Both the position numbers and the translations under genes were made by a program. Source: Planctomycetales bacterium (GTDB lineage: Bacteria; 4484-113). From it: a stretch of 64,000 bases of DNA. Where the stretch lies: positions 101,428-165,427 of the forward strand of contig JBBIRS010000001.1 of NCBI GenBank assembly GCA_037441675.1. The letters are read 5' to 3'. The notes beneath the pieces were generated by a model. That model was not told where the DNA came from, made no database searches, and was given only the letters and a program-made list of their open reading frames with translations. Of the stretch, positions 7,181 to 52,500 are shown piece after piece (positions within the stretch are counted from its first letter, which is position 1; each line of letters begins with the position of its first letter).

Positions 7181-9151
7181 ATGAGTGAGAAACTGAAATT
7201 AATTAGAATTACGCTGGCTCTTTTTCTTGCGATTTTCTTGATTGTAAGCTGTGGAGGAGGTGACGGGGATCAGCGGCAAAATGGCTTTGGTCCTCCACCC
7301 CCTGGTGGTCTAGAAGGTGGTGATTCCGAGGAAGAAACCCCATTTACTCTTGGTAATTTCACGCTTCCAGGAGGCACTCCTTTTGGGGATATTCGTGGAA
7401 TTGCTGCAAGTTCTCGGTACGTTTATGTTGCTGAAACAAATGCGATACATGCCTTTGATCTGCTCGGTAATTACGTTAACACTGCCTCAGCAGCTAACAT
7501 TACTGGTATGGTAGTGATTCCACCAGATCCGAAGCCCCAGGATGGCGATACTACCCATTATCCCTATCCAGAGTTTCCCGTTATCGTTTACGAACCTACC
7601 GAGAATAGTTTCATTTCTATTTTTGCTCCCAACTTGGACGACTTAGTCACTGTGGAGCATCAAGATTATCCAGACCTGGTTAAGCGGATTGATTTACCGT
7701 TTATAGAAGATTACGTTAGATACAGAGTTCAGCCTACTAGCCCTGTACCGGATCCACCCGATCCTTGCCCCCTCCTAATTGTTCGAACCTACGATGTTGA
7801 TATAACTAGGGAAGGAACTATTGTAGTACTTACCGATACCGACCTCCCCTGCACAACTCCTTTCCCCGATTTCCCAATGACAATGTACTTTTTTGATCCC
7901 CATGAGGGTTATCTAATTTCTCCGCGGCGAACTGGAACAGTAGGGGTTCCAGATGAGAACGGAAACCCTCAACCGGTTCAAGCTCCTTTCCGTTTTGCTG
8001 GAACTTTTGGAGACCAAACCGGAAGCCTCGGACAGCTTGCTATAGCTAACAAATATCCTCCTAATAGAACAGATAGTCAGACACTATATCTAGGTGGCGA
8101 TGTTAGAGCCATTCCAGATATTCGTTTAATGCTTGGCATCTCGGAGTGGAATATTGAAGTTGATTTTGTAGGTGTCAATTTTCTCCAAGTAGATACAACT
8201 TTTCCGCCCTATATTTATGAAATTGGTGGAATTGTTAACAATCGTTACGGGTATAACCGTGTAATTGGGCTTCCGGGCGGTTCACTACCTGGGAGTTTTG
8301 CTCTAACCCCACCGATCGGCCCAGGTGGTGACTTGGAAGACCCAGATTTAACAGCGGGTGGTCCATCCGGAATGGCAATTAATCCCAGGACCGACGACTT
8401 ATATGTTTGTGATCCGGGCAATAGAAGGGTTCAGGTTTTTGATAAAAACTTAAATTTTGTTCGCCAGATTGGTGATGGAATAAGGGGCACTTCAGGAAAT
8501 CATCTCGTTGCTCCTAGCGAAGTGCATATTACCCTGGATGGCAAAATTTTTATTGGAGATACACTTGGGGATGGAAGCGGAATTGGTTGGCTAAGGATAT
8601 TTGGTGAAACCGCTCCGCCCGAGTTTGGTTCCGTAGGTGGAACTGTTATGAACCCCACGACGGTTCCTCCTTCTCCTATAGTTGAAGCAACTGTTACCAT
8701 CCTTAACGCCAACGGCGTGGTTGCCATTCAAAACACTAACGTAAATGGTGAATATCGTTTTGACAATCTCCCGCTTGGAACATACTTCCTAACCGCGGAT
8801 AAGTTCGGTTATAGTACAGATTCAACCTCAGTTGATCTCGTTGCAGACCAGCACGTAATTGTCAACTTTAACTTATACCCAGGTGTTCCTCCCACGCTTG
8901 GTTTCTACGTTGGTGCTGTTTATGATGAAGTGACAAATCAGGCTATCGCTGGTGTAAGGGTTAGGATAATTGGTACTTCCATTCAGACTTATACAGACGG
9001 ATCTGGAACATTCTTCATTTCCGACTTACCTGCAGGTGATTACCAGGTAGAGTTTACCCATGAGGATTACATCACGAAGACCCTTGACTTGCACATAACC
9101 GCTGGTCAAACCACGAGGCACGATGCGGTTAAATTGATACCTCTGCCATAA
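7181..9151 (+). CDS. lipoprotein with NHL repeats and two carboxypeptidase-regulatory-like beta-sandwich domains; the likely start is the ATG at 7181 with RBS GGGAG
   Basis: Lipobox IVSC plus a Gly/Pro-rich linker; NHL-like YVCDPGNRRVQVFDKNLNFVRQIG; CarbopepD_reg-like segments GEYRFDNLPLGTYFLTADKFGY and SGTFFISDLPAGDYQVEFTHEDY. Confidence 0.6.
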   Translation: MSEKLKLIRITLALFLAIFLIVSCGGGDGDQRQNGFGPPPPGGLEGGDSEEETPFTLGNFTLPGGTPFGDIRGIAASSRYVYVAETNAIHAFDLLGNYVNTASAANITGMVVIPPDPKPQDGDTTHYPYPEFPVIVYEPTENSFISIFAPNLDDLVTVEHQDYPDLVKRIDLPFIEDYVRYRVQPTSPVPDPPDPCPLLIVRTYDVDITREGTIVVLTDTDLPCTTPFPDFPMTMYFFDPHEGYLISPRRTGTVGVPDENGNPQPVQAPFRFAGTFGDQTGSLGQLAIANKYPPNRTDSQTLYLGGDVRAIPDIRLMLGISEWNIEVDFVGVNFLQVDTTFPPYIYEIGGIVNNRYGYNRVIGLPGGSLPGSFALTPPIGPGGDLEDPDLTAGGPSGMAINPRTDDLYVCDPGNRRVQVFDKNLNFVRQIGDGIRGTSGNHLVAPSEVHITLDGKIFIGDTLGDGSGIGWLRIFGETAPPEFGSVGGTVMNPTTVPPSPIVEATVTILNANGVVAIQNTNVNGEYRFDNLPLGTYFLTADKFGYSTDSTSVDLVADQHVIVNFNLYPGVPPTLGFYVGAVYDEVTNQAIAGVRVRIIGTSIQTYTDGSGTFFISDLPAGDYQVEFTHEDYITKTLDLHITAGQTTRHDAVKLIPLP

Positions 9152-9323
9152 TCCTTACTTGCTGTTTAGCCTTTTCTAAGGGTTTCCAGAGGGTTGCCTT
9201 GCTCTCATTCAAGCTAAAGCTTTGGATCAAACACGCTTACTTAGGCAACGATTGAAAGGATGTCTTCAACCAATTACCATATATTCTCCCAAACCGTTGG
9301 AGTGGAGGGAGGGATAGGCAAAA

Positions 9324-10205
9324 ATGGATCTTTCAGTCATTATCCCCAACTATAACGGAGAGAAACTCCTAATACCATTGATAAGCCGACTTGAAGAGTT
9401 ACTCGCCAAATCAGGCTTAAACTACGAAATAATCCTTGCTGATGATTGTTCTAATGATGAAAGTGTTACTTTAGTAAAGAGTACTTTTCCGTGGGTGAGA
9501 GTTGAGGCTGGTGGGGAGAGGAAAGGTTTTGGAGGCAACTGCAACAGAGGCGCAAAAGCAAGTAATGGTAATTATCTTGCTTTTGTAAACACTGATATTG
9601 AATTTGAAGGGGATATCTTCAACCAACTTATAAAGTCTCTATCAGATTCAAGGGTATTTGCAGTGATGCCTCTGATATTTGCTGAAAGATTAGGACGCGT
9701 GGAAAATTACACGTTCCTTTGGAAGCATCGCGGACTTGTCTGGTTAAAGCCAAGGGGAGAAATTGAGCTAACATCTGCGGAAGAAGTTGCTAAGAAACTA
9801 GAGCCCAATCCGATTGGTGGTGTTCCACTCTGCGGTGCATTTTTTATCTGTAAAAAGGATATTTTCAACACCCTTGGTGGATTTGACGAAATTTTTTCTC
9901 CAGCTTATTGGGAAGATGTGGACTTAGGGTTCAGAGCGGAAGAACTTGGCTATGACATACTGCTTGTCCCAGGAGTAAAAGTTCTGCATAAGCACTCTAT
10001 AACTATAGATATATCTTTCGGGGGATCCCTAAAGAAAAGGCTTCTGCTCAGGAATCAGGCACTATTTATAAAGAAGCATCTTAATCGGCTAGCGCCAATT
10101 CCCAATTTCCGCATTTGGCTTTCTCTAAGGATTTTCCAGCGTCTCTTTCAAGGCTATCAAGAGCTTATCCCAATTTATCTCTCCATAATCCTTTCGAGGC
10201 AGTAG
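9324..10205 (+). CDS. family 2 glycosyltransferase
   Basis: N-terminal VIIPNYNGEKLL...DDCSNDES, with DxD-type GT-A motifs. Confidence 0.8.
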   Translation: MDLSVIIPNYNGEKLLIPLISRLEELLAKSGLNYEIILADDCSNDESVTLVKSTFPWVRVEAGGERKGFGGNCNRGAKASNGNYLAFVNTDIEFEGDIFNQLIKSLSDSRVFAVMPLIFAERLGRVENYTFLWKHRGLVWLKPRGEIELTSAEEVAKKLEPNPIGGVPLCGAFFICKKDIFNTLGGFDEIFSPAYWEDVDLGFRAEELGYDILLVPGVKVLHKHSITIDISFGGSLKKRLLLRNQALFIKKHLNRLAPIPNFRIWLSLRIFQRLFQGYQELIPIYLSIILSRQ

Positions 10206-16085: not shown

Positions 16086-17519
16086 CTAAATAGAGCTATG
16101 CCACCTCTTCTTGCGTAAAAGTTTAGAATAAACCGATATTATGAATTCTCTCTCCGTTCGGTTTAATTCTCCATTTTCCCTCAAGATTCTCTGAATCGCA
16201 ATAAACTCCTCATCGGACATTTCAATTTCATTTGTGAGATACGCCAAAAGGTTAAGCTGTTCATTATCTGTACGTGGGGATTTGCCCGATAATGCTGAAA
16301 GAGCGAATAAGAAAGCTCCTTCAAAATCATCAGTTTTATACATTTGGTTACCAAGGGCGATAATCCTTTCAGTCTCCGGTGGGAATTTATCTATGGGTAA
16401 GGATAATCTACGTCCAAGGGGAAAAACTCTCGGCAATAGTGCAACTAAAGCAATTAGGATCAGAATAGACAAGGCTCTTCCCCCTTTGGTTGATACCAGT
16501 AGGCTCGTGACGCTAACTGTTGGAAGGTAAAATCTTGCATTTTCGTGGAAAAAGTAAAGTGGCATCTCACCCCTAAGTTGGAGGAGGTTATTAGCAAATA
16601 CAACGTTATCCACAAGCCCAATTTCTTCATTGGTCAATATATCTGAGATAAACAGGATAGTTAACCTTGCGCTTTCAATAGACTTCGCACCAAGCAATGG
16701 AACAAGCGTTCCCTTTAGAATGTAAACTTCATCAAGGCTATCAAGTAAGTTTTGATAATATGTTGAGACATATTCCAATTCTTCAATGTTTCTCTTTATG
16801 TAAATGTGGGTAACTTCATTAAAGAGAGCCGAGGTCTTTGGTAAGAATATGTGCATTCCCCCCTTCTCATCTTTCTCCCACGCTACTTCGTAAATCTTAC
16901 TATGTATTTGTTCCTTTTGTCTTTGCTCTGCTCTCCGCTCCTCAATATTATGTAAATTTGTGCTTATTTTCACCTCTCTATCACTCTCTCTTGCTCCATG
17001 TTCATTTGATTTTAATTTCAGCATATTCTCTTTTGCTTCTACGTTCGGTATGCTTTCATTCTTAATCAACAAATTCTTATCATTCTTCTCACTTTTCGTC
17101 TCCACCTTAGACCTTTTAACTGATTGGGGTCCTGTTGAGGATATATCTACTGTTTCATTTGGTAATGGCATTAAGAGCAAAAAACTTGTCCCTTTCTCCA
17201 TTTGACTAGTAATACTCTGAAGATCATAGAAGGGGTAGGGGGCAAATAATTTATGAGACTGGTTTTTGGCACTACCCGTTAAGACAACGAATGCTCCGCG
17301 GGGAATAAGAACCAGTGGACGATTATGTATAACAGGTCTCATCTTTAGTCTTTTAGCTAACAGATATAGAGCGCGAATACCCTTAGCGCCGGTACTGTAT
17401 GCTGAGAGTGGTTCGCCATCCGCCTTATGAGGTTGTGCCTTTATTGAAAGGGAAAAAACTAGGCTCACTATTATCGCTGTAAGTAGCCATATACCAGTGC
17501 TTTGCGGTGCTGTTTTCAT
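16086..17519 (-). CDS. DUF4350-like membrane protein (MoxR/BatA-system accessory) with a Lys/Glu-rich low-complexity insert
   Basis: Signal/TM helix, then YSTGAKGIRALYLLAKRLKMRPV, typical of DUF4350; a second TM near the C-terminus; 2-nt gap to alr and 4-nt gap to the DUF4129 gene. Confidence 0.4.
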   Translation of the reverse strand: MKTAPQSTGIWLLTAIIVSLVFSLSIKAQPHKADGEPLSAYSTGAKGIRALYLLAKRLKMRPVIHNRPLVLIPRGAFVVLTGSAKNQSHKLFAPYPFYDLQSITSQMEKGTSFLLLMPLPNETVDISSTGPQSVKRSKVETKSEKNDKNLLIKNESIPNVEAKENMLKLKSNEHGARESDREVKISTNLHNIEERRAEQRQKEQIHSKIYEVAWEKDEKGGMHIFLPKTSALFNEVTHIYIKRNIEELEYVSTYYQNLLDSLDEVYILKGTLVPLLGAKSIESARLTILFISDILTNEEIGLVDNVVFANNLLQLRGEMPLYFFHENARFYLPTVSVTSLLVSTKGGRALSILILIALVALLPRVFPLGRRLSLPIDKFPPETERIIALGNQMYKTDDFEGAFLFALSALSGKSPRTDNEQLNLLAYLTNEIEMSDEEFIAIQRILRENGELNRTEREFIISVYSKLLRKKRWHSSI

Positions 17520-17523
17520 CTTC

Positions 17524-18288
17524 CTATTCGCGATTCCCCTCTTGGGATAAAAGTTGAAATGCCCTTTTGAATTCAGCGAATTTGTCTATACTTATGGAGC
17601 GTTCCCCATAAAAGGTTTCATTGAAAATCATAGTTAAATATCTAAAGGCGGTTGTTCTTTCTGGCTTTCTAAATTTGAAAGACTGGATTAAAAGGGAAGT
17701 GGGAAGCGTTTTGGCATAAGCTGGAAATAAGATATTTAAGCTTTCCTGATATAGACACCTAATCGCCTCAATTAAATTTCCCTGCATTTCAGCTTTTTCC
17801 GCCAATTCTAACCAACCATTTCCTGATTGTGACTTTGCAGGTGATCGTTTCTTTCTCCTGTGAATTTGAAAAACCTCCAGACAGCTTTTGACTACGAAGG
17901 CAAGTAACCCCAAGCCTAAGATTAGTGAAAATAGCCTAAAGATGGTGAATGCTGTGGGATTTTCACCTTCCGAACCTTGTGATAAGTTCTTTAACCATTC
18001 CACGATTGGTGTGAGTATTCCCCATTCATTATCGAGGGAACTTCTACCCTCTTGCCGAAAAGCCCTGCTTGAAAGAATGCTATTTATCATTGAGTGAAGC
18101 TCGTTAGCATCAACTCCTTCATTTTGTATCTTTCGAGAATTGTTTGCGTCGTGAGGGACATAACTAGTTTGCCCTGAAGAACTCTCCTGTATGTTAAAAA
18201 TGAAGGCGTAAGAACTTCTAGCAAGAATGAGTAAAAATACTAGCACTAGGATATATCTAAATTTCCAATTCTTAAGGTTGTATACCAT
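17524..18288 (-). CDS. DUF4129 domain membrane protein
   Basis: Two TM helices, then a C-terminal WLELAEKAEMQGNLIEAIRCLYQESL...AFRYLTMIFNETFYGERSIS resembling DUF4129; the same domain type sits at the C-terminus of TgpA at 40753. Confidence 0.45.
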   Translation of the reverse strand: MVYNLKNWKFRYILVLVFLLILARSSYAFIFNIQESSSGQTSYVPHDANNSRKIQNEGVDANELHSMINSILSSRAFRQEGRSSLDNEWGILTPIVEWLKNLSQGSEGENPTAFTIFRLFSLILGLGLLAFVVKSCLEVFQIHRRKKRSPAKSQSGNGWLELAEKAEMQGNLIEAIRCLYQESLNILFPAYAKTLPTSLLIQSFKFRKPERTTAFRYLTMIFNETFYGERSISIDKFAEFKRAFQLLSQEGNRE

Positions 18289-18302: not shown

Positions 18303-19976
18303 TTAGTAGTATCTAGGTGAGAAAACGATATCAACCTTCTTATTTTTTGCTGACGCCCTAAAGTCCAGCAAGTGGTTGTAATTAACATCGCTGGTAAGAA
18401 ATTTTCCGTGCGCTACCCATCTATTTGAATGACTTGAAAGCCGAACATCAGATACTTCATACATACTTGCACTCTGTATAAACTCAATTTCCCCTAAGAG
18501 TTTACCAACTTCCTTTTCGAGTTCTTTCTTTCCAGTGGAGTATGCTGAAAAATTAATAATAACCCCAAAAGGTGGAAGCTTAAAATCTTCCTTCAGTTTC
18601 TCTATGTCAGCAAGGGTTTTCTTCCTATCGGGCCCAATCCTAGCGAAAATTGCATCAGTAATTTGTTTTGGGCCTAGAAGTTGAATATTTACTGAATTTC
18701 TTCCGTAAAGAGAGTATAGACGATAGATTTGATCCTCTACGAATTCCTCAACAAAGGGAGCCTGCGAAACCGATATAAATTCCCTTAGGATGAAAACGAT
18801 TTTCTTCGGTTTATAGAAGCTTAAAGGTGAGAAAAGTGTGCTTGTCCCAATCAATACGTCCGTTCTACCCAGATTCGCTTCCCTAATTTCACCTCTACGT
18901 GCTTGGTATAATGCTCCTACACGTGGCGTATGTGGAAGATTTCGTTTCTTAAGCTCAGCTCTAACTAGTTTCGCCAAGCCTTCAACTCCAACAAGTTGAA
19001 TAGAAAGCTCTCTTCCTTGACATTCTTGACACGCAACATTTCTGCTTCTAAAGCCACAATTGGTGCAGGCGAAATGCTCCGTATCTGCACTGTAAAGAAG
19101 ATATCTTCCGCAATTGGGGCAGTACACCATACTATCACAACTTTCACATTTAATATGTTGCCCAATGCCCAAGGCATCGTTAAGGACCAGCATTTTCACG
19201 CCACTTCTTGCTTGCGAGGCAATTGTTCTTGAGAGTTTTATTATTCTCTCATTACTAGTGCCGGATACAGGTTTTGGAGTTGAATGCAATTCATCCGCGG
19301 AATAACACGGATAAGTGGAAGTTAGGGGGATTAACCTCAACACCATTGGTGTAACCATTGAGTAGAAGTATAAATTTAGTAGCGTGTTGTATCTTGGGTA
19401 ATCTTGAGATTGAAAATGTGGGTTAGTTGGGTCAAAGATAATTACCTCGTCAAAGAGAGAGTAAAGGCAAAGGAAATTGCTAGCCCTTTTTCCAACTATA
19501 ACAATGGACTGCGAGCTTTTGAGAGATTGCTCCAACTTAACAAGTTCGGAAGAAGGCATATCAGAAGAAAAGGTTAATACTCTATCCGCACCCCTTTTTG
19601 GAAGCGCATTTTTGAACGCTTCAACAAAGCTCTCTTCGGGCAAAAGCACGAGAATTTTACTTTTCTTATTCAAAAGAGTCCTGACAAATGATTTGCGAAA
19701 AAAGTCACGCCAATTCACATTTTCAACTCTTATGCAAGGGCTAGAGATGCATCCATCATTCAAAGAGAGTTCAGAAAAGAAACTACTAACTTGCCTGAAA
19801 AAGGAGTGTCCTTCGGGGAATTTGGCTTCTTCTCCTTTAAGTGGAATGGCGAGAACTTGCTGAATCGGTGTTTCAACCTCTTTCCATGTCTTATGAACGA
19901 CCGTTGACAAGGATAATGTTCCTACTACCCTTAACTGCCCACTCTCTAGTATGTCCCATAACTGACTAGGCTCCAT
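18303..19976 (-). CDS. priA: primosomal protein N' (PriA), C-terminal 557-aa portion; the helicase ATPase motifs are degenerate
   Basis: PriA-specific Cys-rich zinc region CESCDSMVYCPNCGRY...CTNCGF...CQEC; region KILVLLPEES...IVIVGKRASNF...LFDEVIIFDPTNPH aligns to PriA motifs I-II but lacks GxGKT and DEEH. Confidence 0.7.
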   Translation of the reverse strand: MEPSQLWDILESGQLRVVGTLSLSTVVHKTWKEVETPIQQVLAIPLKGEEAKFPEGHSFFRQVSSFFSELSLNDGCISSPCIRVENVNWRDFFRKSFVRTLLNKKSKILVLLPEESFVEAFKNALPKRGADRVLTFSSDMPSSELVKLEQSLKSSQSIVIVGKRASNFLCLYSLFDEVIIFDPTNPHFQSQDYPRYNTLLNLYFYSMVTPMVLRLIPLTSTYPCYSADELHSTPKPVSGTSNERIIKLSRTIASQARSGVKMLVLNDALGIGQHIKCESCDSMVYCPNCGRYLLYSADTEHFACTNCGFRSRNVACQECQGRELSIQLVGVEGLAKLVRAELKKRNLPHTPRVGALYQARRGEIREANLGRTDVLIGTSTLFSPLSFYKPKKIVFILREFISVSQAPFVEEFVEDQIYRLYSLYGRNSVNIQLLGPKQITDAIFARIGPDRKKTLADIEKLKEDFKLPPFGVIINFSAYSTGKKELEKEVGKLLGEIEFIQSASMYEVSDVRLSSHSNRWVAHGKFLTSDVNYNHLLDFRASAKNKKVDIVFSPRYY

Positions 19977-20068
19977 ATGACTAAGTAGTTTTTTGAGAAG
20001 GGATGACGATATTCTAGTGCCGTCTCTTGGTAGAAGGATTTTGAGTATCGCCCCAATTTTCTTTGATT

Positions 20069-20428
20069 TTAATGTCTCTTCCCATTTCTCACCGTAAAAA
20101 AAAACAGATTTATCCTTCTTTGAGCCTGGCCAAAGGTTACAAGATCAAATATCTCAGCGGGAGAACAAAGATACAAACGGGAAAGCGCAAGTATCATCTT
20201 TCCAATGTGCACTACTGGTGACGTAGTCAATCTCAATCTTCCCACAATAGGCAATAGCCCATTCAAGTTGCCATTCGTAAGCTCGGCAATTATTCCCGCC
20301 ACTAGCTTCTCTCTGAATGGCACAATTACCAACTCTCCCTTATCGTAGGACTTATCTAACGGGACTCTATACGAGAAATAACGGAAACGCGGGTCTTGCC
20401 CAAGAAGATATATTTTCGCAATTCTCAT
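20069..20428 (-). CDS. priA: PriA N-terminal 3'-DNA-binding domain fragment (119 aa), out of frame with the 18303-19976 ORF
   Basis: YRVPLDKSYDKGELVIVPFREKLVAGII matches the PriA N-terminal domain; ends just after a T9 run; the downstream ORF continues in another frame. Confidence 0.6.
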   Translation of the reverse strand: MRIAKIYLLGQDPRFRYFSYRVPLDKSYDKGELVIVPFREKLVAGIIAELTNGNLNGLLPIVGRLRLTTSPVVHIGKMILALSRLYLCSPAEIFDLVTFGQAQRRINLFFFTVRNGKRH

Positions 20429-20515: not shown

Positions 20516-21442
20516 TTAACTTTGTTGATTAGATTCTACTTCTTCTCCCACCTTAAATAGTTTTGCCTTTATCTCAAAACGTGGTAACTCCCGCTTGTAG
20601 AGCTCATTCAAATATTCAGCAATATGCTCATTTACAAGTTCCCCAAGAAGATACTCTCGTATATCCTCCTTCACCTCTTCCAATGTGTGATTCTCTGCGG
20701 GTAATTTCTTGTGGACAAAAACAATGTGGAATAGAGATCCTCTGATTATCTGAGAGTACTTGCCCTCTTCCAATGAAAATGCAACTAACTCTAAAGGAGC
20801 TGGCAACCCACGCCCTTTTCCGATAATCCCGACGTATCCACCCCTTGCGCGTAATTCCTCATCATCATTATAGATAGATGCAAGTTGATTAAAATCTTCA
20901 CCCTTTTCCAGCCTTCCCAATACCTCTTTAGCTCTTTCCTCGGTATCTACACTTATAATTGACATCTGCACTCGCTCGGGTAATTGGAACTGGTCAATGT
21001 TTTTTAGATAATACTTCTTAACATCGTCATCGCTGACCTTGAGATTCTTCTCCTTTATAAACTTGTCCTCAAGCAACCTTCTATACTTGCGGTTCATAAT
21101 GTTGTAATCCACAAACCTTTCCACCGCCGCAGCAGAATAAAGCTCCTTGAAACCGTCATAGATTTCTTGGGTCATTTCGTCCTTGATGAAATCTTGTCTT
21201 TCTTCTTGCGTAGGTGAAAGTCCAAGCTTTGCAGCTTCCTTGTAGACTACAATTTGCTGAAGAAATGTGACGAGACCCTGCGCACCGAGCATCTTCATAA
21301 AGAAAATGTCAAAATCCTCGAGCGTTATGGTTTCACCATTGTATACAGCTAAGGGGTTGCTGCTCTCTGCTTTTATGGGGTAGGAGCCAAGCAGAAGAGC
21401 ACAAATGCTTATCAAAATTGTTGCTATGGTTCTAGTTTTCAT
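20516..21442 (-). CDS. peptidyl-prolyl cis-trans isomerase with a PpiC/parvulin-type domain (SurA/PrsA-like), secreted
   Basis: Signal peptide MKTRTIATILISICALLLG; parvulin domain GGYVGIIGKGRGLPAPLELVAFSLEEGKYSQIIRGSLFHIVFV. Confidence 0.7.
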   Translation of the reverse strand: MKTRTIATILISICALLLGSYPIKAESSNPLAVYNGETITLEDFDIFFMKMLGAQGLVTFLQQIVVYKEAAKLGLSPTQEERQDFIKDEMTQEIYDGFKELYSAAAVERFVDYNIMNRKYRRLLEDKFIKEKNLKVSDDDVKKYYLKNIDQFQLPERVQMSIISVDTEERAKEVLGRLEKGEDFNQLASIYNDDEELRARGGYVGIIGKGRGLPAPLELVAFSLEEGKYSQIIRGSLFHIVFVHKKLPAENHTLEEVKEDIREYLLGELVNEHIAEYLNELYKRELPRFEIKAKLFKVGEEVESNQQS

Positions 21443-21447
21443 TAATG

Positions 21448-22689
21448 TTATTTCTCCCTTCTTAATCGTTTTACCATAGAGCATATTAAAGTTACCAATG
21501 CTTCCCCAATTTCCTCTTTACTATGATAGCCAAAAGGAATTACAGCACCATCTGTTGTAAGTAAGGCTGACTTCATAGAAGCCTCCCCGAAGGGACTTTG
21601 CCCTTCCTCTAAGGATACAGCAATTATTCCACTAAGATCTTTTTCCAAAAGTTTGTTCTTTGCAGAATTCAGCACATCTGAAGTGTCAAGTGATACACCA
21701 ATTCTGATTGATGGCATATTTATTTTTTTAAGTGATTGTAAAATATCATCGGTTCTTGTAAGAGAGAGCGAAAGCTTTTCGTGCTTATCCTTTTTTATCT
21801 TAGAATTTGAAATAGGTGAAGTATAATCCGCCACACCAGCTAGCATTACCAGCACATCATTTTCCTGAGCAGATTCTGTAACAACTTCATACATTTCTTT
21901 GGCGCTTGTAATTCGACGAAAGTTGTAGCCCCTTTGTTCTAACTCCCGATTAGGAATACTTGGACTCGCGACAAAGGTAACTTTTGCTCCTTGAAGGAAC
22001 AGCATATCCGCACATATTAGTGCCAAAGTTCCCGTTGATGAATTGGAAACGAACCGAACGGGGTCTATAAATTCGCGAGTTGCTCCTCCAGTGACAAGCA
22101 CATTCACGCCTGATAGTGGACCCTCGAGCAGGTTAAGCTGATTAAGTAAAACTTGTAAGATTTTTCTTGGTTCTGCAAGTCTTCCAGGTCCCACCTCGCC
22201 ACATGCTAGGTATCCAGTTCCCGGTTCAACCATAATCATTCCTCTTTGCTGTAACTTTGTGACATTTTCTTGTGTTACCGGATTTTCCCACATTGCACTG
22301 TTCATTGTAGGTGCGAAAACAATTGGACCGCGAAAGGCAAGAGCAGTTGAAGTCAATAGATTATCAGCAATTCCATGTGCAAGTTTAGCGATTGTATTTA
22401 CGGTTGCGGGAGCAATCAAAAATATTTCAGACCCTCTCGCCTCTTGTATATGATACATGGAGCCCGAATCGTAGTCGTCTGGCATTTTATAGTCTGCAAA
22501 TTCATCAACAAGTACTCTATTACCCGTTAGAGCGGTGAAAGTTAAGGGGCTTATGAATTTAGTCGCATTTGGCGTCATTATTATATGCACGTCAAGTCCA
22601 TTTTCTACGAGTTCTCTTGCAACCTCGCAGATTTTGTAGACTGCTATACCCCCACTTACTCCTATCAGAACTCTTCTACTCTTCCTCAA
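21448..22689 (-). CDS. coaBC: bifunctional phosphopantothenoylcysteine decarboxylase / phosphopantothenate-cysteine ligase; likely TTG start at 22689 preceded by AGGAAGGAG, while the longest ORF runs to 22773
   Basis: Flavoprotein N-domain VLIGVSGGIAVYK; CoaB domain with GGATREFIDPVRFVSNSSTG. Confidence 0.85.
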   Translation of the reverse strand: MRKSRRVLIGVSGGIAVYKICEVARELVENGLDVHIIMTPNATKFISPLTFTALTGNRVLVDEFADYKMPDDYDSGSMYHIQEARGSEIFLIAPATVNTIAKLAHGIADNLLTSTALAFRGPIVFAPTMNSAMWENPVTQENVTKLQQRGMIMVEPGTGYLACGEVGPGRLAEPRKILQVLLNQLNLLEGPLSGVNVLVTGGATREFIDPVRFVSNSSTGTLALICADMLFLQGAKVTFVASPSIPNRELEQRGYNFRRITSAKEMYEVVTESAQENDVLVMLAGVADYTSPISNSKIKKDKHEKLSLSLTRTDDILQSLKKINMPSIRIGVSLDTSDVLNSAKNKLLEKDLSGIIAVSLEEGQSPFGEASMKSALLTTDGAVIPFGYHSKEEIGEALVTLICSMVKRLRREK

Positions 22690-23122
22690 GTTCTCCTTCC
22701 TCAAAGAACTCACCCTCTTCCTCAGAAGAAGCGTCCTGTTCAACCACGATTTCCTCCGAAGGGACAAATTCAAACTCAGTCTTTGCAGTGCCTTTTGTAG
22801 TTAGATGAATGTTTTCGCCTCCCTTCCTAAAGCCTTCCAAATACTCAAAAAAGTAAAGTTTTTCTCTTTCCAGTTTACTCTCTGCGATTTCATAGAGTGC
22901 TTGTGTGAGTGGCTTTAAGGTAGATTTCTGTTCATTACTTTCTTCATCAAGCCCAGTTTCTGACATCTGCAACCTTCTTGATTTATACACGATTTGTTTC
23001 GCTCGCAAAGCCGCCAGTAAAACTAACTCATACTTATTCGGTACATGCTTTAGCAAGTCATCCATAAGTGGATATAAAAGAGTTTCCTTTTCCTCCATTC
23101 CTTTGGTTTCATGTTTGTTCAT
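22676..23122 (-). CDS. rpoZ: DNA-directed RNA polymerase subunit omega with an extended acidic C-terminal tail
   Basis: LLKHVPNKYELVLLAALRAKQI core; ATGA overlap with the gmk stop; C-terminal SSEEEGEFFEEGELEEE. Confidence 0.8.
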   Translation of the reverse strand: MNKHETKGMEEKETLLYPLMDDLLKHVPNKYELVLLAALRAKQIVYKSRRLQMSETGLDEESNEQKSTLKPLTQALYEIAESKLEREKLYFFEYLEGFRKGGENIHLTTKGTAKTEFEFVPSEEIVVEQDASSEEEGEFFEEGELEEE

Positions 23123-23823: not shown

Positions 23824-24678
23824 CTAAGCTTTCTCATTAACCCTAGCAGCAATTACGTCAGTAGCATTTGCTATCATTCCTTTACAAAATATCTCTTCAA
23901 TAACTTTATACATGTACTCTTCTAATTCGGCGCGTTCAGAGGATGATAGCTCAACAGTCCTAGCTTCCGAAGATGGGAGATTCACTCTTATCCTTACTCT
24001 TGCCGGATTACTGAAAAAGTCAACGCAAATAGTATTTCTTCCACTAATTGGAACATTATCCTTATACACAATAATATACTGAACATCAGTCTGGAAAGGC
24101 AAAAACTTTAAATCTACAATTTTCTCGTAGGTAAACGCCCCGGATGTGTGGTCAATACTTTTCCTATCCTCACCAAAGCGGAATCTTTCGCCCTCTATTT
24201 GTAAGTCAGTAGTGCCTGCTCTACTCCATATAGATCTAAAAAACCTAATTGCCGTCTCGGCATCAATAGTTCTAGTAGTCCTTTGGATGCTAATCCAAAG
24301 TATAGCGTCAAGTGCTTGCTGTAATAGGTCAAAATCAATACCCCTTATGTACATGTGATGGAATGTCTGCATTCTAAACGCTGAAGGGAAGCTTGCTCTA
24401 TCAAAATCCCATCTTAACCTTTGATAAACCTTCATTAATTGCTTTTCCTTTGGATGCAGTGCAAATCTGGCTAATCTGTGCTCTGTATATCTTGCAACTT
24501 CGGTGCTGTCTTTCATCATTTCGGGCGTGTCACCAAGATTGGTAACTAGGGGATACAGCCGAAAATATAAGTTTTCCTCTCTTATCATTCTATGTGCCAA
24601 AATGATTTGGCGAAAGAAATCCATTAAACTAACGCCTAAATTATTAATTATAGCCTTAGGAAGTAGGACTGTTAGCAT
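23824..24678 (-). CDS. hypothetical protein (284 aa) sitting where Firmicutes carry yicC/remA upstream of gmk
   Basis: Long ORF with sensible codon usage; no motif I can recognise; it does not match YicC signatures. Confidence 0.4.
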   Translation of the reverse strand: MLTVLLPKAIINNLGVSLMDFFRQIILAHRMIREENLYFRLYPLVTNLGDTPEMMKDSTEVARYTEHRLARFALHPKEKQLMKVYQRLRWDFDRASFPSAFRMQTFHHMYIRGIDFDLLQQALDAILWISIQRTTRTIDAETAIRFFRSIWSRAGTTDLQIEGERFRFGEDRKSIDHTSGAFTYEKIVDLKFLPFQTDVQYIIVYKDNVPISGRNTICVDFFSNPARVRIRVNLPSSEARTVELSSSERAELEEYMYKVIEEIFCKGMIANATDVIAARVNEKA

Positions 24679-49576: not shown

Positions 49577-52500
49577 GTGAAAAAAAAACCTAAAATACCT
49601 CGCTTCATCATCATTCTGTTCTCGTTTCTACTCATACTTTCTTCTGTTCTCTTATACCTTCTTTGGCTGAAAGTTCCGAAAATATTGGAGGAGAAAACAA
49701 AGGCGCTGATAAACGATTTTGTGCAGAAAAGCGAAATTGGAGAGCTTAAATTCGATTCAATAAGCCTTAGACTTGCTTTTCCATCTTCAATTATTCTAAG
49801 AAATGTTGAATTAAGAATACCAGAGCAAAATGAATCGCTTCTCACTGCCAAATCAGTTAGGCTGAGCTTACCTCTCGTTAAAGTCCTAAGGGGAAAGTAT
49901 CCAATCAATGTCAACTTAACTTTTGAGAAAGCAAAAATCACGATTCACTACTTTGGCAATGGTAAATTCAGCATTTCCCCTATGATCGAAAGCTTGCTGA
50001 GAAAAAAGAAAAAGGTCACAGAAGTATCGAGTATTCGAGCGTCTTCTCAAAACTTATCTATGATAATCTTGATGGATGAGGGTAGTTCTTCTGATATCTC
50101 AACTGCTATAAAGAATAATATTTTGCCTAGAAGGGCTTCCCTGCTAAAGAACTTAGACAAGATTTCTAAAATGTATCATGTAAAGTGGGAAGGGGGAGCG
50201 GTTTCAATAGTTGACGAACTATTAACGAGTTTGAGTTTTATTAAACCACGAAAGGCTGTTAACTTTAATCTCACATTTAGCTTCAATCATATCTTCCAAA
50301 CGGGAATGAGCTATGTTCACCTGCGTTTAACCTCTCCTGTTAAAGCTGAATTCAAATCAACCCTTTCCTTTATATCAGGGAAGTATGAAATCAACGGGAA
50401 AGTGAATGAGTTAATACCTTCAGATTTGCCATTGTCTCTTCCAAGAATTTTAGAAAAATCGATGGAAAAGACTGTCTTGTCTCTTTCCGGCGTTCAGATT
50501 AGTATTTCACCTAAAAAGAGAAAAGTGTTGTTTGATACTCTGCTAAAAGACCTCACAATTCCCCTTGGCGGTAATAATGAGATAAAAGTGCCAACTATTA
50601 CGGTAGTGAAAAAGGCGCAAGGATATTTTCTTAAAAGTAAGCTAAGCATAGTTGAAGGCATAGCTGATGTAAGTTTAACTTGGGGCAAAACTCCACTCCT
50701 AGCGCTTAAATTCAACGATTTTCCTTTCAGCAGTATTGCGAAATCAATCGGTGCCTTTAGTGTTGCCTCTATGGATGGAGAGCTAACGTTGAAAAAGACG
50801 AACTCCCAATGGTTGAGTAACCTTAACCTCAATCTAACGGACTTAGAAGCAGAGACTAAAAAAGTTTTGGACATACTAGAACTAAAGGGTCAGGTTTCTA
50901 ATCAATTAAATCTAAGGCTAAATGGTTTTAAGCAAAGAAGGAGGAATTTCTCCCTACTTGTAAGTGGTAATAGCAAAGCTTTCAAATATAAAGCTAGTTT
51001 CTCCTTCACAGGGGGGGAAATAGATTTAGCTCAAAGTATCCAATTAGAATTCCCTATATCCCTCTCTCATTTACATGGGCTCACAGAGGGGGAGATAAAG
51101 ATTTCTCCCCTTCGTATTGAAGGGTCATTTAAGGATACAAGGGCAGAATTTCCCGATTTTTCGGTTCTTTTAAGTAAGGGAGAAGTTTCAATTACCTCTC
51201 AAGCATTTTCGCTCTCACTCAGTGAAGGTGCGCTAATTTTATCTGCTCCATTCAAAGACCAGCATATCCTTCAAGAGTTGTTGCCCACAAGATTCAAATT
51301 AGCAGGTGGTTTCTTTGGAAGTAGAAAGAAGGATTCTTGGCAATTTGGCTGTAATTTATCTGGCGAAGGAAAAGGCTTGAAGTTCCCAATTAGATACAGA
51401 CTTGAAGCTAAAGGCGAAGCCTCTGAGATAAAAACAAACCTGACATTTTATGGTTTTTTTCGTGATGAACCTCTTTTTGGCGTGGCAAACGCCATCGCTA
51501 CTTTCGCTGGCTTAAAAGGCTTCTCCCTTGAGGGTAACCTTGGGAGAACAGAGTTTACCGCGTTTGGTGATATTCCCATTGGCGGTTCATTAAATCTGGG
51601 CTTCAACGCACGTGGCGTGCGCTTTAACGTAAACAATGCAATTGTGAAGCAAATAGGGGAAGCAACTATAGGTGGGCAAGTATCAGGAACTTGGTCAAAG
51701 CCGATTATCTCCGCCATTATTAGTATTCCTAGGGTGTATCTTAGAGAGATAAAATCCGCCGATAAAGAATTTAGCCTTATACGAAACGTTAGCCTGCCAA
51801 TCAGCTGGAATAATAATCAATTAACTTTTCACGAGGGCACCTTCTTTTATAATGGCTCTCTCTGTTACTTTCAAGGCATAGTTCAAGGGGGAAAGTCAGA
51901 TTTCAGCATAACCTCACCAGCTTTTAGCCTAGCTCCTGTTTTGAAAGCGCTCTTCGTAAATCAAACATTTCAATGGGTCGGTAATGGCGAATTTTCAGCT
52001 AGGATAATTTCTCAGAACTCTTCCACTATCTATAAAGCTTCCTTTTCGCAGAGAACGGGAACGTGGGAAGATGTTGGCATTAAGCGAGTGAACTTTCGCA
52101 TAAGTGGCGATAACAACCATTTACGGGTTAGTCAAGGAGAGATTAATCTTGACAAAGGGGGAGCTAAAATCTCAGGCATCCTTTATTTTGGAAGTGGGCG
52201 AGAAAGTGAAGTCACTGCCATATTTGATGATTTCCCATTGTTCGCCGACTTGAGAGGTGCAATAGTCACCCCCTTCAGTGACATTAAAGGTTATCTCTCA
52301 GGCACTATTAGGCTAGCTAATGTTGGTGGTGAATTTCTTGTCTCTGGTGACGTTTCATTGCGCGATGCAAAACTTCTTGGAACTAATTTTGATACGTTTA
52401 AGGTACGCTTTTTCCAGGAAAGAAATGGCGTTCAAATTGATGAATTAGTTCTTTTTAATAACGAGAACTACCTACAAGGTTACGGCTTTTGGGGGGAGAA

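Follow-up and report, generated by a model that had tools for sequence, protein, structure and literature searches.

The subject of this analysis is a priA-like gene on the minus strand of a 64,000-nucleotide stretch of contig JBBIRS010000001.1 (Planctomycetales bacterium, assembly GCA_037441675.1, positions 101,428 to 165,427), hereafter called the window. An initial annotation had treated the span 18303-20428 as a single gene with one open reading frame (ORF). The span was found to hold two ORFs, whose frames differ by one base, the change occurring at a run of nine thymidines (T9; 20096-20104). Nothing else at the locus is as distinctive as this frame break, which four species share and which alters the products that arise from the gene. 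Overall, the locus is best explained, in our judgement probably correctly, as the gene of a PriA pseudohelicase devoid of ATPase motifs and expressed through slippage at the conserved T9 run.

In the program-made ORF list, the locus appears as an ORF of 119 residues (20069-20428) and another of 557 residues (18303-19976), the latter being counted from its first ATG. Three-frame translation showed that the coding strand at the junction reads ctg ttt ttt ttt acg. Standard decoding gives ORF A, which ends in the zero-frame sequence FFFTVRNGKRH. When one T is added to the run, the two frames are fused into a protein of 708 residues reading ...RRINLFFF-YGEKWEE... (junction peptide INLFFFYGEK), and this repaired product is colinear with intact orthologues of 700-715 residues. 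A version of the run interrupted by TTC codons would read TTCTTCTTT. The coordinates of all features are collected in Table 1.

Eight loci of the family were compared: the window and those designated L001, L002, L005 and L008-L011. In four of them (the window, L002, L008 and L009) a run of exactly nine T occupies the homologous Leu-Phe-Phe-Phe codons and is followed by a downstream frame at -1. The last three come from an ENA megahit assembly (ERZ27245902), from NCBI (GCA_900174565.1) and from JGI (3300010938), respectively, and gene callers give two ORFs for each of them, as for the window. The other four orthologues are GC-rich (58-62% GC); they carry LLFS, LLLT, LFLS or LELS at the site, lack the run and are in frame. 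Addition of one T to each split gene yielded proteins of 707-710 residues, again colinear with the intact ones, and apart from the junction the ~2.1 kb of each of the four T9 loci are free of stops and indels.

The T9 carriers form one clade with 86% bootstrap support. Identity between their lineages is 39-42%, L002 and L009 being closer to each other (75%). The simplest history is a single origin of the run, which was afterwards retained exactly. In these loci, 43-64% of the phenylalanine codons are TTT, so that the joint probability of finding three TTT codons at the site in all four is about 1e-3, or about 5e-3 if L002 and L009 are counted as one lineage. None of the other Phe-Phe-Phe triplets in these loci is made of TTT only. 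We infer that selection keeps the interrupted arrangement, because the change from T9 to T10, an easy mutation that restores the frame, has been taken by no lineage. That the frameshift is both conserved and bypassed is a conclusion in which we place high confidence.

The ratio of nonsynonymous to synonymous substitution rates (dN/dS) was determined for a pair of split genes (L002/L009) and for a pair of unsplit ones (L001/L005). The values were 0.14 and 0.11, respectively, for the N-terminal part, 0.21 and 0.22 for the 45 codons that follow the run in the -1 frame, and 0.17 and 0.14 for the remainder. Both frames are thus under purifying selection, like the unsplit genes. A decaying pseudogene, which the initial annotation had set against its own proposal, does not agree with values of 0.14-0.21 in all segments. 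Furthermore, the -1 frame after the run is devoid of ATG, GTG and TTG over 40 codons in the window, 28 in L008 and 76 in L009. This stretch nevertheless aligns with the in-frame orthologues (e.g. LPRxxTRISSxLxKKL). Since it is conserved without having a start codon, it can be translated only by entry into the frame at T9.

The locus codes for a true but very divergent PriA homologue, composed of the 3' DNA-binding domain, a winged helix, two RecA-like lobes, a Cys4-Cys4 zinc region and a C-terminal domain. Among the Pfam families, PF17764 (the PriA 3' DNA-binding domain) was matched above threshold (24.9 bits for a cutoff of 22.7, E = 1.9e-5, residues 16-95). The models for the DEAD and helicase-C domains (PF00270, PF00271), the PriA cysteine-rich region (CRR; PF18319) and the PriA C-terminal domain (PF18074) were undetected in a Pfam scan of the repaired protein, so that of the three alignments proposed in the initial annotation (PF17764, PF00270 and PF18319) only the first gave a match. 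The NCBIfam priA models were matched weakly, the best being TIGR00595 with 71.2 bits for a cutoff of 230, and the window protein stays under the curated equivalog thresholds (TIGR00595, PRK05580). The family profile retrieved the PriA structures 4NL4, 6DGD and 8FAK at E values around 6e-10, as colinear pieces, and a profile-profile alignment with 14 canonical PriAs (hhalign) reached a probability of 100% and an E value of 1e-39 over columns 5-657.

In addition, the fold was examined on an AlphaFold model of the intact orthologue P0003, not of the window protein itself (pLDDT 88.6, pTM 0.89). Its nine best matches in the PDB are all PriA (E = 4e-30 to 2e-17, TM 0.5-0.65), and generic superfamily 2 helicases come next at E values around 2e-6. 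The RecA-like lobes are kept as a fold in this model, and the eight cysteines of the zinc region are invariant across the family. The three PriA hallmarks listed in the initial annotation (3' DNA-binding domain, Cys4-Cys4 region and C-terminal domain) were thus recovered through the PF17764 match, the invariant cysteines and the fold of P0003. In the same model, the residues that match the run form the beta-strand that opens the winged-helix domain, directly after the 3' DNA-binding domain. The T9 run therefore encodes the first strand of this domain, and the order of the domains agrees with that of the PriA structures. With canonical PriA (E. coli and K. pneumoniae; 4NL4, 6DGD, 8FAK) the protein shares domain order and fold, motifs Ia (PE) and Ib (GxRSA), the four CxxC pairs and the gmk-rpoZ-coaBC neighbourhood. 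It differs from canonical PriA by an identity of 15-17% in structural alignments, by scores far under the NCBIfam equivalog cutoffs, by the absence of the ATPase motifs and by its frameshifted gene.

None of the eight family members retains motif I, II, III or VI, all of which are replaced by other residues. Walker A is absent from the whole length of the protein. The place of its equivalent is uncertain by about ten residues, and GK[ST] is absent under either placement. The initial annotation had held that every ATPase motif is degenerate, which is correct in substance: the Walker A, DExH and SAT sequences are gone, as are the arginines of motif VI. In detail, the replacement of DEEH (there given as DPTN) is borne out by the alignment of FDPT, and the alteration of the motif VI arginines by RLYSLYGR, in which the arginines are not conserved across the family. 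For Walker A, the proposed equivalent NWRDFFRKSF does lack GK[ST], but hhalign sets GSGKTEVY against ISSPCIRVE and leaves NVNWRDFFR as an insertion. The reading of motif III as MVT was misplaced by about ten residues, PLT being the aligned segment.

Two candidates for displaced motifs were rejected. The tetrapeptide DELH (residues ~379-382, listed at 18961-18972, minus strand) is a chance occurrence in a non-conserved linker between the lobes and not a displaced motif II. It could pass for a DExH box in a motif scan. No intact Walker A or DExH sequence was otherwise found elsewhere in the reading frame; the presence of one would, according to the initial annotation, have spoken against its proposal. 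The pairing by MAFFT of the canonical GSGKTEV with ESGQLRVV is a misalignment, as this segment sits in the winged-helix domain and the P-loop placed by hhalign lies about 60 residues further on. The identity of the protein as a PriA pseudohelicase is very probable. Its ATPase and 3'-5' helicase activities are predicted to be absent, and by analogy it may reasonably be supposed to act without catalysis, in recognising forks or loading the helicase.

Table 1. Features of the priA-like locus, in window coordinates
Feature	Position	Strand	Description
Whole priA-like gene	18303..20428	-	Two frames; a -1 shift at T9, to which one extra U is equivalent, gives a 708-aa PriA-family protein
ORF A, zero frame, 119 aa	20069..20428	-	3' DNA-binding domain, L-F-F-F and a non-conserved 8-residue tail (TVRNGKRH), then stop
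Downstream frame, -1 relative to ORF A	18303..20096	-	Residues 112-708 plus stop
T9 run (A9 on the plus strand), recoding site	20096..20104	-	Codes for F109-F111
3' DNA-binding domain, residues 1-105	20114..20428	-	PF17764, E = 1.9e-5; aligns with K. pneumoniae PriA residues 30-103
Winged-helix-like second DNA-binding domain, ~residues 106-172	19914..20113	-	From the AlphaFold model of orthologue P0003, residues 112-178
Walker A (P-loop) position, GCISSPCIRVENVNWRDFFRKSFV	19683..19754	-	No GK[ST]; canonical GxGKT lost
Motif Ia			Canonical PE, family PE; retained
Motif Ib			Canonical GxRSAxF, family GxRSAxF; retained
Motif II equivalent, FDPT for DEEH	19425..19436	-	Family consensus F/L-D-P-T/M/S; lost
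Motif III equivalent, PLT for SAT	19320..19328	-	Lost
Zinc region, four CxxC pairs, C428-C470	19020..19148	-	Aligns with the PriA CRR of 4NL4
Motif V			Canonical GTQ, family GTS; altered
Motif VI equivalent, RLYSLYGR for QxxGRxGR	18699..18722	-	Arginines not conserved in the family
SurA-like peptidyl-prolyl isomerase (PPIase) gene	20516..21484	-	Follows coaBC and precedes the priA-like gene in all family loci
Genes of 254 aa and 477 aa, immediately downstream of the priA-like gene	16086-18288	-	Without family match in the window

The following scheme is proposed for the expression of the gene. Standard decoding would give a protein of 119 residues, in which the 3' DNA-binding domain is followed by the strand that opens the winged helix and by an unconserved tail of eight residues, so that it is essentially a free 3' DNA-binding domain. 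The 708-residue protein would be made only from messengers that carry one extra U after slippage of RNA polymerase on T9, or after a -1 slip of the ribosome on U_UUU_UUU. Two products would thus arise from one gene, in a ratio set by the efficiency of slippage. As proposed for Deinococcus PriA, the 708-residue pseudohelicase would recognise abandoned forks and recruit the replicative helicase without unwinding DNA. As a stable entity, the free N-terminal piece is not implausible, because E. coli PriA tolerates a split in its winged-helix domain.

Runs of 9A or 9T are slippage-prone; in many bacteria, transcriptional slippage becomes efficient at nine A or T (PMC1088944). The features expected of such a site are present in the sequence: at least nine A/T lie in the overlap of two ORFs, one added nucleotide fuses these ORFs into a full-length homologue, and the organisation is kept among diverged homologues. 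At the T run, no terminator-like site was found. No conserved downstream RNA structure was found either, the folding z-scores ranging from -2.1 to +1.7 without consistency between loci, nor was a conserved upstream element resembling a Shine-Dalgarno sequence, AAGGA being present in the window only. The lack of a conserved stimulator fits slippage on the run itself.

The alternative that survives best is a variant of the same scheme, in which the same proteins are produced by programmed -1 ribosomal frameshifting on U_UUU_UUU, as a translational event. The run does hold an in-phase X_XXY_YYZ heptamer in the zero frame, and both mechanisms occur in dnaX, that of E. coli using ribosomal frameshifting and that of Thermus transcriptional slippage (PMC1088944). 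However, neither of the two stimulators just mentioned is conserved, upstream or downstream. Moreover, seven Us suffice for tandem slippage, yet exactly nine are kept, which is the length where transcriptional slippage becomes efficient. On these sequence features, transcriptional slippage would be clearly favoured, and to ribosomal frameshifting we would give the minor share within the recoding scenario.

The conservation of T9, the in-frame GC-rich orthologues and the dN/dS values argue together against an assembly error, two independently translated genes and a pseudogene. According to the first of these explanations, which the initial annotation had implicitly adopted, the true DNA is T10 and the gene is an ordinary ORF for a motif-less PriA. 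Homopolymers of 9-10 nucleotides are indeed error-prone on several sequencing platforms, and one extra T restores the colinear protein. Against this, four assemblies from four sources and pipelines (two from NCBI, ENA megahit and JGI) all give exactly T9. The other long genes of the window are intact, including those of DnaE (1170 residues), GyrA (828 residues) and a TamB-like protein (1548 residues), and at its 59 runs of 6-7 A/T no break is evident. In L002, L008 and L009, T9 is the longest homopolymer, every other run being of at most 7 nucleotides. Finally, even a T10 would, if conserved in a coding region, be very prone to slippage and still call for an explanation. An error of sequencing or assembly is thus quite improbable.

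In the window, the T9 run ties with one other run of nine nucleotides, A9 at 49580-49588. This candidate was rejected as a second frameshift site, as it follows a GTG start and forms, in frame, codons 2-4 (KKK) of the TamB-like gene (start codon and run together at 49577-49588, plus strand). It would likewise be slippage-prone.

A genuinely split gene would produce a free 3' DNA-binding domain and, from an internal start, a protein made of the winged helix, helicase lobes, CRR and C-terminal domain, the two assembling non-covalently. Such an arrangement has an engineered counterpart: E. coli PriA interrupted in its winged helix (insertion at residue 154, new start at 157) retains nearly all of its function as long as both pieces are available (PMC5778457). 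Two ORFs are annotated by gene callers in all four loci, and L002 has a GTG four codons past T9. Separate initiation is nevertheless difficult to reconcile with the start-free stretch described above, which is conserved with a dN/dS of 0.21, and it explains neither the exact T9 nor the phenylalanine codons that are all TTT. We therefore consider it very unlikely. Least credible of all is a pseudogene or a phase-variable locus caught in its OFF state, replication restart being ensured by another priA or pathway: the frame is disrupted at a mutable homopolymer and a second priA could exist outside the window, but both halves are under purifying selection equal to that of unsplit orthologues, the loci have no other stops or indels, the 'OFF' length is identical in all four species, and the break has been retained through divergence to about 40% identity.

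Several points weigh against expression of a pseudohelicase by slippage, as preferred here. The slippage is predicted, in uncultured organisms known from sequence alone, and the loss of ATPase and helicase activities is deduced in the same manner. The T9 run was read from assembled sequences, and it is represented by four sequences from three deep lineages, which is a small number. The Phe-Phe-Phe triplet codes for a hydrophobic beta-strand, so that its conservation could partly act on the protein. The in-frame A9 of the TamB-like gene indicates that this genome does not visibly avoid runs of nine nucleotides, and its RNA polymerase may slip less readily than assumed. Finally, no second priA was found within the 64-kb window, and a canonical priA possibly lies elsewhere in the genome.

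A PriA without motor activity has a precedent. In biochemical experiments, D. radiodurans PriA was devoid of ATP hydrolysis and unwinding activity but retained the binding of fork DNA and of DnaB (Lopper, Boone and Morrow 2015, PMC4504706); a 2018 review of replication restart names Deinococcus as the exception to the conservation of the helicase (PMC5778457). Like the protein described here, Deinococcus PriA has degenerate Walker A and B sequences and keeps, under selection, its DNA-binding domains and zinc region, and it is proposed to recognise forks and recruit DnaB without unwinding DNA. However, the P-loop of Deinococcus-Thermus PriA remains recognisable (GKT changed to GRT), whereas here the P-loop, DExH, SAT and motif VI arginines are all replaced. 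No frameshift is reported in the Deinococcus gene, in contrast to the present one, and the activity of Deinococcus PriA was measured while this protein is a predicted sequence. Among the best 150 PriA-like cluster representatives, about 60 also lack Walker A, DExH and motif VI and keep the four CxxC pairs; from these sequences, motif-less PriAs appear to be widespread, beyond Deinococcus-Thermus. The initial annotation had called an inactive PriA scaffold plausible but unusual. The loss of the motifs under purifying selection makes a non-catalytic PriA reasonable, but the D. radiodurans case and the ~60 motif-less representatives make it less unusual than was supposed.

For the frame break, a direct parallel is mxiE of Shigella flexneri, in which two overlapping ORFs are joined only if RNA polymerase inserts one non-templated U within a U run (Penno et al. 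2005, as far as it is related in PMC1088944). In that account, as in the scheme proposed here, slippage is needed for the longer, functional product. mxiE, as related there, is a plasmid-borne virulence regulator of one genus, whereas the present gene is a chromosomal gene of replication restart, with a site kept at about 40% identity and a slippage that is predicted. Another parallel is dnaX, a replication gene that yields a long and a short product (tau and gamma) by way of a homopolymer or slippery site, slippage fixing their ratio; the Thermus gene contains an A9 run (PMC1088944). Standard decoding of dnaX gives the long product and slippage the truncated one, the reverse of what is expected here, and unlike in dnaX the site lies near the N-terminus, at the boundary between the 3' DNA-binding and winged-helix domains. 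The engineered split of E. coli PriA resembles the present case in that the N-terminal DNA-binding part is separable from the remainder. It is a laboratory suppressor cut inside the winged helix, whereas here the break is at the domain boundary and the downstream part has no start of its own.

By analogy with dnaX, T9 could be a programmed device that gives, in a fixed ratio, an abundant free 3' DNA-binding domain having its own role and a scarce full-length pseudohelicase. This proposal is tentative, and we rate it as less likely than not to be correct. Equally tentative is what would follow for the two products: the free domain could cap or mark the 3' ends of nascent leading strands, or compete with the full-length protein, while the scarce pseudohelicase would recruit the replicative helicase. 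If true, this would be the first reported recoding in a gene of replication restart, and selection would have maintained it from the ancestor of a deep bacterial clade onwards.

No report of recoding in priA was found in the open-access literature, and a large recoding review of 2016 does not mention priA or the primosome. The ATPase-dead PriA is already known; the conserved T9 frame break is the new observation. If the slippage is real, a core gene of genome maintenance joins the few cellular, non-mobile genes that rely on recoding, with a site that is simple, easily tested and held for a very long evolutionary time. The short product suggests that a free PriA 3' DNA-binding domain may have a function of its own, and the wide occurrence of motif-less PriAs bears on how far replication restart needs the PriA motor. 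At present, the gene is annotated as two unnamed ORFs, so that the PriA of this clade is effectively absent from databases.

The family is distinct and sharply bounded. In an exhaustive hidden Markov model search of 1.84 billion cluster representatives, seven scored at least 440 bits and the next one 116 bits. Word-indexed searches with the full protein, the family profile and the N-terminal profile gave three to five matches each and no additional family members; the family-profile search used a cutoff of 1e-15, which may hide short fragments, and a rerun of the N-terminus at 1e-3 brought nothing new. One sequence, P0012, is a contig-edge fragment and is uninformative on the junction. Exact look-ups of proteins encoded in the window returned no record. 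The degenerate form, for which the initial annotation had suggested a search in related genomes, is thus present both in the whole family and, as said, in many of its nearest PriA-like relatives.

The gene order common to the eight loci is gmk, rpoZ, coaBC, SurA-like PPIase, priA-like gene, a gene of ~253 residues, a gene of ~450 residues, alr and SLT transglycosylase. The context gmk-rpoZ-coaBC-priA of the initial annotation is therefore right as to the genes present, but the PPIase gene intervenes after coaBC. Orthologues of the two genes located downstream of the priA-like gene have a weak DUF4350 match only and are syntenic in all eight loci. The same two genes (7262-9365) follow a related motif-less PriA (FDEVILLDPTHPQF) in the Planctomycetales metagenome-assembled genome L003. 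The three genes may form a conserved operon partnership.

Two minor observations concern the upstream genes. The rpoZ ORF is unusually long, with 148 residues in the window (22676-23122, minus strand) and 140-154 in the orthologous loci. Upstream of gmk, an ORF of 284 residues (23824-24678, minus strand) has no Pfam or NCBIfam match; its position and size (281-294 residues) are kept in L001 and L008-L011.

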